Source: Escherichia coli O127:H6 str. E2348/69 (GTDB lineage: Bacteria; Pseudomonadota; Gammaproteobacteria; Enterobacterales; Enterobacteriaceae). Taken from it: DNA of 64,000 nucleotides. Under the pieces are notes generated by a model, which was given only the letters and a program-made list of their open reading frames with translations, made no database searches and was not told the origin of the DNA. The stretch is taken from NCBI RefSeq assembly GCF_000026545.1, contig NC_011601.1; one strand, given 5' to 3'. Each line of letters starts with the position of its first letter. The stretch's first letter is position 1. Shown here one piece after another: positions 3,747 to 60,721 of the stretch. Position numbers and translations under genes: made by a program.

Positions 3747-3764
3747 GCCCCCTGCGAAGGGGGC
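3747..3764. terminator. GC-rich hairpin (gccccctgcgaagggggc) between convergent ulaF and yjfY, flanked by A/T runs; likely bidirectional intrinsic terminator
   Basis: Perfect 7-bp stem with 4-nt loop, preceded by tttttcaaaaaaa. Confidence 0.6.
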
Positions 3765-3804
3765 AAAGCAAACTATGGCAATGTTTCGTTGGTTATACCT
3801 GGTG

Positions 3805-17891: not shown

Positions 17892-17919
17892 GCAGCGCAT
17901 TCTGTTCCCCTCGAACCAG

Positions 17920-19469
17920 CTGTCTCTTATACACAAATCCCCACCCGGGGATTTGTGATGTCTGTCAGTCTGCTTTAGGGGGACTCTTTCCATCCGGTAG
18001 TTTCCTTCCTCCCCGGCAGCGATTTTTTGAACTTTTTCCTCACCTGTTGATCTTCTCTTATATTTCATTTTCTTCGGGTCTGTTATGGTACTTTCTGATT
18101 GTTATTCATGGGCTAACGAGCAGTTTGGACATGCCCGTCTCGGTGATCCGCGTCGTACACGACGCCTTGTGTCACTGGCCTCTTCTCTCGCTCAGCATGC
18201 AGGTCTTTCTATTGTGAAATCATCCCAGTCCACTGCTCAGGTTGAAGGTGCGTACCGCCTGATACGTAACCCGTCTGTGTCCCCGCAAGCCATTGCCGAA
18301 GCCGGATTTACCGCCACTGTAAGGGCATGTGAGGCTCATCCGCTGCTCCTCGCGCTGGAAGACACCACCACCATTAACTTCAGTCACAGTACGGCATCTG
18401 ATGACCTGGGGAATACCACCACTAACCCGAAGACGCGCGGGCTGCTGGCTCACTCTGTCCTGATGTACGCCCCCGACAGCGCCCTGCCAGTCGGTCTTAT
18501 CGAACAGCAGCGCTGGAGTCGTGCCACGGACACCTACGGTGTTAAGCACCAGCGAAAAGAACGTCCCTATGAAGAAAAAGAAAGTTACCGCTGGCAGCAG
18601 GCTTCGGAGCGCATGGCCGAACGGCTGGGGGAGATACAGAAACGGGTAATCACTGTCTGTGACCGGGAAGCGGATATCTGGCATTACCTGCATTATAAAG
18701 TCAGCCACGGGCAGCGCTTCGTGGTGCGTGCAGCACAGAATCGCCGGCTGGAAGAAGCACCCGGCAAGCTCTTCGAACTGCCGGAAGTCCTGGCAACCGC
18801 GGGAAGCCACACGCTGAATGTGATGCAAAAAGGCGGGCGGGCAGCCCGCCAGGCCCGGATGTTCATCAGTTACAGCGAAGTCAGCATAAAAAATCCCGAC
18901 AACAGCGGCCAGGCGCTCCCGCTCACGTATGTCTGTTGCCGGGAGCAGGCAGAGGACGGCGCCTGCTGGCATCTGCTGACGTCAGAAAAAGTGGCGAGTG
19001 CCGCCGATGCGCGACGTATCGTCAGCCATTACGAGCGACGCTGGCTGATAGAGGAATACCACAAGGCGTGGAAAAGTGGTGGTACATGTGTGGAATCGCT
19101 GTGAATGCAGACCCGGGATAACCTCGAGCGCATGGTGGTTATCAAGGCGTTTATCGCGGTGCGGGTGCTGGGCCTGCGGCAGGGCGGTATCAGTGAAGAA
19201 ACACAAAATGACAGCTGTGAGAAAATACTGACGCCGACAGAGTGGAAACTGCTGTGGGTTAAGCTGGAAGGAAAACCGCTTCCGTCACAGATGCCGACAC
19301 TGAAATGGGCCTGTCTGAAACTGGCGAAACTGGGGCGATGGCATGACAGCAAACGCACCGGTCGCCCCGGTTGGGTAGTCATGTGGGATGGCTGGTTCAG
19401 ACTTCAGGATATGGTTGAGGGTTACCTGGTGATGAAGTCTCTTGATCAGGAGATCTGATCAAGAGACAG
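17920..19469 (+). mobile_element. IS50/Tn5-like insertion sequence (IS4 family) with diverged transposase
   Basis: Left end CTGTCTCTTATACACAAAT (2 mismatches to the Tn5 outside end as I recall it); right end is the exact reverse complement of the Tn5 inside end CTGTCTCTTGATCAGATCT; flanked by direct repeat cgaaccag; internal Tn5-Tnp-like ORF. Confidence 0.85.
18085..19458 (+). pseudogene. Tn5-like transposase interrupted by an in-frame TGA at 19102-19104 (ORFs 18085-19104 and 19105-19458, same frame)
   Basis: N-fragment LGDPRRTRRLV...EGAYRLIRNP...LALEDTT...CDREADI...RRWLIEEYHKAWKSG closely resembles Tn5 Tnp including the DDE positions; C-fragment DNLERMVV...AVRVLGLRQ... continues the alignment after the stop. 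Confidence 0.7.
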
Positions 19470-19757
19470 CGAACCAGAGGGGAGCAGACATTCAGCAATA
19501 AACCCTTCAGTTTGCCAAACGGCGCTATTTTGTGTTGCAAAGACCCCGTAAGCGTGTATTTTTGTGAGCTGTTTCGCGTTATCACCGTGATATGACACTC
19601 ACTTTAAACATAAAATTAACATTAGATCTAAATCTTAGTATTCATACCGCGTATTGTTACCTAATATCGATGAGTCCCGATACAGATTCGTCGTATCATA
19701 GACTGACTAAAGGCCGTAGAGCCTGAACAACACAGACAGGTACAGGAAGAAAAAAAC

Positions 19758-60586: not shown

Positions 60587-60721
60587 TTATCTCCTGACGC
60601 CTGGGCAAAAAAAAGCCCCTCGATTGAGGGGCTGGGAATGGGTGATCAACGGGAAGAAAAACGGCAGGCCAGCGTCTTTTTTCAGACGCGGTAAGACAAA
60701 ATGTCGAACACACTGAACCAT
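60587..60721 (-). CDS. pyrL: pyrBI operon leader peptide
   Basis: 44-aa product MVQCVRHFVLPRLKKDAGLPFFFPLITHSQPLNRGAFFCPGVRR immediately upstream of pyrB. Confidence 0.85.
   Translation of the reverse strand: MVQCVRHFVLPRLKKDAGLPFFFPLITHSQPLNRGAFFCPGVRR
60607..60632 (-). terminator. pyrBI attenuator terminator hairpin (gcccctcaatcgaggggc + U8 on the transcribed strand)
   Basis: 7-bp GC stem followed by a run of 8 T on the minus strand, inside the pyrL 3' region. Confidence 0.8.

Follow-up and report, generated by a model that had tools for sequence, protein, structure and literature searches.

Elements with conserved 'target arms' and duplications of variable length are known from the IS4 family, and a member of this family, ISRm22, enters REP palindromes (PMC1525189, PMC2266710). 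Extremities reading 5′-NT are typical of the IS10 and IS50 subgroups of this family (PMC2266710), and Tn5 generates 9-bp duplications whose own bases follow a weak consensus, with the flanking bases also somewhat biased (PMC2229646). In the papers found to mention it, ISEc13 appears solely as a match in mobile-element screens, and it is not named in the IS4-family review; searches of the accessible literature returned no description of the target specificity of ISEc13 or the IS50 subgroup, of terminator-targeting insertion sequences, or of the left-end sequence reported below.

Here, we analyzed a 64,000-nt stretch of DNA from Escherichia coli O127:H6 E2348/69 (NC_011601.1; hereafter the window), which carries a 1550 bp element at positions 17920–19469. 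We conclude, at a probability of roughly 0.93, that this element is a copy of ISEc13 (IS4 family, Tn5/IS50-like) that was inserted at the centre of a palindrome and has been inactivated by a nonsense mutation at Arg340.

Identity and distribution of the element

By megablast against 5426 complete E. coli genomes, the element was found 100% identical over its 1550 bp to NZ_LT827011.1 and NZ_LT903847.1, both of which are E. coli O127:H6 E2348/69. All full-length matches carried the NCBI PGAP label 'IS4-like element ISEc13 family transposase', and the element is therefore already catalogued and not new; the name ISEc13 as used here rests on this annotation label. The locus order annotated in NZ_LT827011.1 is fklB, the ISEc13 transposase (a pseudogene with an 'internal stop') and cycA. 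A count of copies elsewhere in the genome, as proposed in a sequence-only reading of the locus, gave 27–30 matching places in each E2348/69 chromosome, and the window copy was 99.7–100% identical to those found elsewhere in E2348/69 and in further strains. Of the 5426 genomes, 873 had a copy with coverage of 80% or more and 2991 had some match; among the carriers are hundreds of natural E. coli isolates of human, animal or water origin, with the element at many sites.

Ends and insertion site

The sequence-only reading had described near-canonical Tn5 ends, and precise alignment found terminal inverted repeats at both termini, the right one being an exact reverse complement of the Tn5 inside end (IE, 19/19) and the left one matching the outside (OE) and mosaic (ME) ends at 17 of 19 positions. 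The two repeats have their first 9 bases in common, and both termini start with CTGTCTCTT, that is, with 5′-CT. The left repeat was unchanged in all ISEc13 copies examined, and the end-like pattern occurred once in the 64-kb window compared with 0.00 occurrences expected from shuffles. At the other end, the stop codon of the transposase gene (tnp) falls within the right repeat. Coordinates of all features are collected in Table 1.

Both proposed neighbours were recovered, with fklB upstream and cycA downstream, and the element begins 28 bp past the fklB stop codon. The two flanks, joined with a single octamer CGAACCAG, had 100% matches over 592 nt in six other E. coli genomes; at ≥80% coverage, the joined empty site was present in 5409 genomes. 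This indicates that the element is a simple insertion with a duplication of exactly 8 bp, the perfect repeat that had been noticed on both flanks. A 9-bp duplication was ruled out, as no adjoining base prolongs the repeat and the empty site gives exactly 8 bp. A composite transposon was likewise rejected, in line with the earlier reading: the window holds one copy and a single end-like match, the transposase gene is the sole long open reading frame (ORF) of the element with passenger genes absent, and fklB and cycA are contiguous core-gene flanks in element-free genomes. The fklB–ISEc13 junction itself was found in four RefSeq genomes only, namely three E2348/69 assemblies and strain B19374.

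Table 1. Coordinates of the element's features and of its target site in the window.
Feature	Position	Strand	Details
Target palindrome, left arm CCCCT	17907..17911	+	Flank comparison, 20 insertions
Target-site duplication, left copy CGAACCAG	17912..17919	+	8 bp
Left 19-bp terminal inverted repeat CTGTCTCTTATACACAAAT	17920..17938	+	17/19 against Tn5 OE, 17/19 against ME
Subterminal hairpin CACAAATCCCC-ACCC-GGGGATTTGTG	17932..17957	+	Overlaps inner left repeat; −18.6 kcal/mol, z = −5.1
Second, imperfect hairpin, then T6 run	17970..18028	+	MFE structure
Putative weak tnp promoter (TTGAAC, 17-nt spacer, ATCTTC)	18027..18055	+	Sequence reading; missed by consensus scan
Transposase gene (457 codons when intact; pseudogene here)	18085..19458	+	PGAP, Tn5 Tnp homology
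Premature TGA, codon 340 (CGA, Arg in intact copies), followed by ATG	19102..19104	+	C>T, element position 1183
Palindrome with 13-bp stem (last tnp codons, stop codon and most of right repeat)	19437..19467	+	−21.6 kcal/mol
GATC sites, right end	Element positions 1525, 1533, 1538		Two of three within right repeat
Right 19-bp terminal inverted repeat	19451..19469	−	Reverse complement CTGTCTCTTGATCAGATCT = Tn5 IE, 19/19
Target-site duplication, right copy CGAACCAG	19470..19477	+	8 bp
Target palindrome, right arm AGGGG	19478..19482	+	Flank comparison, 20 insertions

Target preference of ISEc13

The target analysis comprised 20 independent ISEc13 insertions, one of which was reconstructed from a pair of recombined copies. 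Duplications of 8 bp were found in 15 of them, of 9 bp in four and of 7 bp in one, and alignment of the flanks gave the consensus CCCCT-[duplication, N8/9]-AGGGG. On the left, C was found at −4 in 20/20, at −2 in 19/20 and at −5 in 14/20 insertions, with T or C at −1 in 18/20; on the right, G occupied +2 and +4 in 20/20 and +3 and +5 in 16/20 each, with A at +1 in 14/20. The flanks were complementary at a mean of 4.65 of 6 positions, compared with a background of 1.50 of 6 over all window positions, and the duplication tracks the parity of the palindrome, even-length centres giving 8 bp and odd ones 9 bp. The sequence-only reading had set the octamer against the 9-bp duplications of Tn5-type elements; the length stands, but it is no oddity, since 8 bp is the usual ISEc13 length, tied to a palindromic target, and not a quirk of the window copy.

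The occupied site in the window reads ttCCCCT[CGAACCAG]AGGGGag, and it is the single place at which the strict form CCCT-N8-AGGG occurs when the element is excluded from the window (62.4 kb remaining). Two further stretches, 3748–3769 (aaaaagCCCCCTGCGAAGGGGGc) and 60616–60637 (aaaaagCCCCTCGATTGAGGGGc), are vacant terminator-like palindromes resembling the ISEc13 target with a shorter centre. In strain B19374, the element lies at the same nucleotide position as in the window, bordered on each side by the duplication CGAGCCAG; the left flank has diverged by 4.8%, yet the element differs from the window copy at only 2 nt, and this is an independent insertion at the same position. Similarly, the agp–yccJ hairpin has been struck twice, once with an 8-bp and once with a 9-bp duplication. 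Most ISEc13 sites are intergenic, many of them between convergent genes, and several are obvious terminator-like hairpins, such as gagatcccc[CCGCTCGG]ggggattttttt.

All of these sites are fixed insertions in genomes, so that selection against harmful ones could add to the intergenic bias, and the palindromic flanks might then mirror survivorship in harmless, terminator-rich intergenic spots rather than a choice made by the transposase. The mainly intergenic location, frequently between convergent genes, would fit such an explanation, which we nevertheless consider improbable: insertion occurs at the exact dyad centre, the duplication length follows palindrome parity, independent insertions have hit an identical nucleotide position, and the half-site pattern recurs at two sites within coding sequence (ygfK in locus L002, and locus L016). 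Moreover, C at −4 and G at +2 and +4 are invariant, which selection among fixed insertions could not have produced. ISEc13, together with the relatives described below, clearly prefers the centre of short hairpin-forming palindromes.

The transposase and its premature stop

Compared with Tn5 transposase structures, the reconstructed 457-aa protein aligned from residues 6–453 to Tn5 residues 9–469 (E=3e-83), with 42% identity over 436 aligned columns. Three Pfam domains were identified, Tnp_DNA_bind (PF14706, residues 8–65), DDE_Tnp_1 (PF01609, 177–357) and Dimer_Tnp_Tn5 (PF02281, 377–452), and the NCBIfam model NF033590 scored 514 bits against a cut-off of 160. The catalytic residues D93, D193 and E323 are present and align with Tn5 D97, D188 and E326, and the YREK signature Y-(2)-R-(3)-E-(6)-K was found as Y316-R319-E323-K330. 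The element thus has the single-ORF DDE/YREK transposase, the three Tn5 domains and the 5′-CT ends of the IS50 subgroup of the IS4 family, as well as a duplication of about one helical turn as in that subgroup (9 bp in IS50), the usual ISEc13 length being one base shorter.

In the window copy, the reading frame is interrupted at codon 340 by an in-frame TGA that the sequence-only reading had missed, which splits the gene into two consecutive, in-frame ORFs (18085–19104, 339 aa, and 19105–19458, 117 aa), so that the uninterrupted frame of an autonomous copy is lacking. Element position 1183 is C (CGA, Arg) in six other copies, located on the E2348/69 chromosome, on pMAR2 and in four other strains, and this C>T change is the sole difference between the window copy and two other E2348/69 copies. 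In the E2348/69 assembly CP059840.2, the fklB–cycA copy with identical flanks has C, again as its sole difference, and encodes the intact WP_000244358.1. Unless the T results from faulty assembly, the nonsense mutation is therefore very recent and limited to a single sub-lineage of the strain. It truncates the protein by its last 117 residues, and the dimerisation domain is lost with them. The C-terminal region of Tn5 transposase is required for dimer formation, and by analogy the loss of this domain should abolish activity and leave the window copy presumably unable to make a working transposase. Because its ends are intact, the copy could in principle be mobilised by its roughly 28 siblings.

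Production of an active enzyme from the interrupted gene, whether by readthrough or recoding of the TGA or as a split transposase after reinitiation at the ATG, is to be considered as well, given that the ATG follows the stop directly and in frame (TGAATG), that the downstream 117-aa ORF is intact, and that the N-terminal 339 aa retain the DNA-binding domain and all DDE/YREK residues. We regard this as very unlikely, both in view of the part played by the C-terminal region in Tn5 and because CGA was found in all other copies examined, including the same copy in another stock, which marks the TGA as a recent accident and not as a conserved recoding site. An inactive window copy is therefore the reading that we retain.

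Separately, reinitiation at TGAATG (window 19102–19107) could in principle yield a free 117-aa C-terminal dimerisation fragment.

That the element is IS50/Tn5 itself or differs little from it, as would an insertion of laboratory origin (Tn5 or mosaic-end), is suggested by its exact IE at the right and its ME-like left end, and is refuted by a transposase just 42% identical to Tn5 Tnp (that of IS50 itself would be essentially identical to IS50R Tnp) and by the spread over many sites in hundreds of natural E. coli isolates, with the 1550 bp length, the 165-nt leader and the 8-bp rather than 9-bp duplications also speaking against it. The earlier view of a moderately similar IS50 relative was accordingly upheld.

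Relatives in aquatic Gammaproteobacteria

An exact scan with the first 23 nt of the left end, using one genome per species, recovered 81 loci (L018–L098), all from aquatic Gammaproteobacteria of the genera Vibrio, Photobacterium, Shewanella, Alishewanella, Neiella, Aliagarivorans, Rheinheimera and Aeromonas. Besides these identical 23 nt, the relatives have in common with ISEc13 a right end, reading TGATCAAGAGACAG, transposases of about 50% identity, a hairpin starting at element position 16, a similar palindrome arrangement at the right end (GTCTCTTGA...TCAAGAGAC) and insertions centred on hairpin dyads. They differ in the length of complete elements (1480–1503 bp) and in target arms that, in most groups, are other than the CCCCT/AGGGG of ISEc13.

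The targets of these relatives are shaped like intrinsic terminators, with an A-run, a G+C stem and a loop, then often a T-run. AAAA was found between −24 and −9 in 60 of 77 distinct left flanks (78%), compared with 6.6% in the control, with A at −16 in 67/77 and G at −2 in 59/77, and the last two flank bases pair back over a 3–8 nt loop in 91% of cases compared with 33% in the control. Taken together, these features outline an A-run that is followed by a G+C stem, a loop and the first bases of the stem's return. In the seven cases for which both flanks were available, the duplications measured 8, 8, 9, 9, 10, 11 and 12 bp and were always dyad-symmetric; with seven cases only, the variable length is suggestive. 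A cruciform model for this variability was rejected, as it gave the wrong stagger polarity on paper.

At five loci from Aeromonas/Gammaproteobacteria MAGs and Photobacterium (L019, L020, L079, L080 and L091), the conserved left end with its terminator precedes unrelated ORFs instead of a transposase gene, and no right end was found within 1.3–1.8 kb of these left ends. They could be solo ends or passenger-carrying derivatives.

Hairpins, leader and putative promoter at the left end

All 19 distinct relatives that were folded have a strong hairpin from element position 16 to about 45 (−14 to −22 kcal/mol), composed of a conserved outer stem (AAATCCCC/GGGGATTT) and an inner stem that varies between elements and is always complementary. 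MAFFT set the variable-length stems of the left ends out of register, and the hairpins were folded singly. The hairpin is followed by T6–8 and GAAC, which together form a predicted textbook intrinsic terminator.

The subterminal hairpin of ISEc13 sits where the terminator of the relatives does, but has no T-run. Its second hairpin ends in GATTTTTTGAAC (18021–18032), in which the T-run and GAAC are similar to GGGGATTTTTTTGAAC, the tail of the terminator in the relatives, and may mark a terminator at this position. A consensus scan of the plus strand of the ISEc13 left end found neither a canonical promoter nor a canonical terminator, the hairpins being known from folding only, and the putative weak tnp promoter was recognized by reading the sequence. 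This promoter contains a Dam site (GATC, 18049–18052). The tnp promoter of IS50 is Dam-sensitive, and the ISEc13 one may be analogous to it.

On the strand antisense to the transposase gene (18588–19005, minus), five terminator-like hairpins with T-runs were found compared with 1.8 expected from shuffles, one example being GGCGGGCTGCCCGCC followed by TTTTTG (18850–18836). They might stop transcription coming in from the right end.

Other ISEc13 copies and rearrangements

In one related genome (CP148541.1), the fklB-side and cycA-side flanks lie on different ISEc13 copies about 60 kb apart (L014, 2304917–2307090; L015, 2365394–2367567), each flank being joined to one half of a second site with the duplication CTCCCCAA. 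The swapped half-sites indicate an inversion by recombination between the two copies, which also explains why this chromosomal pair is without matching duplications; in this genome, recombination between copies has already rearranged the fklB–cycA region. The intact copy on plasmid pMAR2 of E2348/69 (NZ_CP059841.1, 15027–16576), located between hok and finO, has no matching duplication either, which is suggestive of recombination, or of a deletion next to the element, after it had inserted.

A search for more sites with a second transposase variant returned a single widely shared site, between ybaY and MGMT (L007, L011, L099–L101, L105 and L111), where the insertion is common to many E. coli and the palindrome reads aaccctct[CCGCCCGG]agagggtt. 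In several genomes, the variant at this site is about 98% identical to the window copy, and its protein is indexed in 1196 collection blocks. The ybaY–MGMT insertion is apparently an old one that has become fixed within a lineage.

At L108 and at the right flanks of L014/L015, two distinct insertion sites share the flank aggggcgaggggaccgttcg, so that ISEc13 may also enter a dispersed E. coli intergenic repeat.

Discussion

By inference from Tn5, ISEc13 would move by cut-and-paste, with a transposase dimer bringing the two ends together, excising the element and joining its 3′ ends to staggered target positions. The stagger observed here is 8 bp, sometimes 9, and the insertion is centred on a short CCCCT-N8/9-AGGGG palindrome. 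More tentatively, and at somewhat less than even odds in our judgement, ISEc13 and its marine relatives may constitute a Tn5-like clade in which hairpin targeting, dyad-symmetric cuts and a left-end terminator are linked. Transposases of such a clade would pick palindromic, terminator-like hairpins and make their staggered cuts symmetrically around the dyad, so that hairpin geometry, and not a fixed spacing, would determine how long the duplication is (8–12 bp). It is plausible that an element splitting a host terminator brings its own: the intrinsic terminator at the left end would protect the transposase gene against readthrough arriving from the upstream gene, the terminator of which the insertion had disrupted, and might also restore termination for that gene.

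As such, the window copy is routine annotation, being a dead copy of an insertion sequence that already has a name, in the genome of a well-studied pathogen. Only the preference for palindromic targets and the terminator at the left end might be worth following up. Where 'random' insertion is wanted, Tn5 transposase is the standard enzyme, and close natural relatives that combine Tn5-type ends with strict targeting of palindromes or terminators provide a natural experiment in the reading of target DNA by this transposase fold. The same targeting accounts for the clustering of ISEc13 between convergent genes, for the little harm that it does and for the toleration of about 30 copies.

Compared with known systems, the window copy differs from intact ISEc13 copies by the nonsense codon 340. 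With IS50/Tn5 (IS50R transposase, PDB 1MUH and related structures), ISEc13 shares the 19-bp end architecture, the tnp stop codon inside the right end, GATC sites at the right end and near the putative promoter, and the three domains with DDE/YREK residues. It differs from IS50/Tn5 in its protein (42% identity), in its usual 8-bp instead of 9-bp duplications, in its long structured leader of 165 nt, and in having no Met, by alignment, at the position where the Tn5 inhibitor protein starts. In addition, the palindromic specificity of ISEc13 lies outside the duplicated bases, whereas the weak Tn5 consensus lies inside its 9 bp. In targeting short, G+C-rich extragenic palindromes, ISEc13 resembles ISRm22 (IS4 family, REP), IS1397/ISKpn1 (REP loops) and IS231A, and since palindrome and arm targeting is documented in the IS4 family, this is not a new kind of behaviour; what distinguishes ISEc13 from these elements is that it recognizes a generic CCCCT-N8/9-AGGGG motif and not one repeat family.
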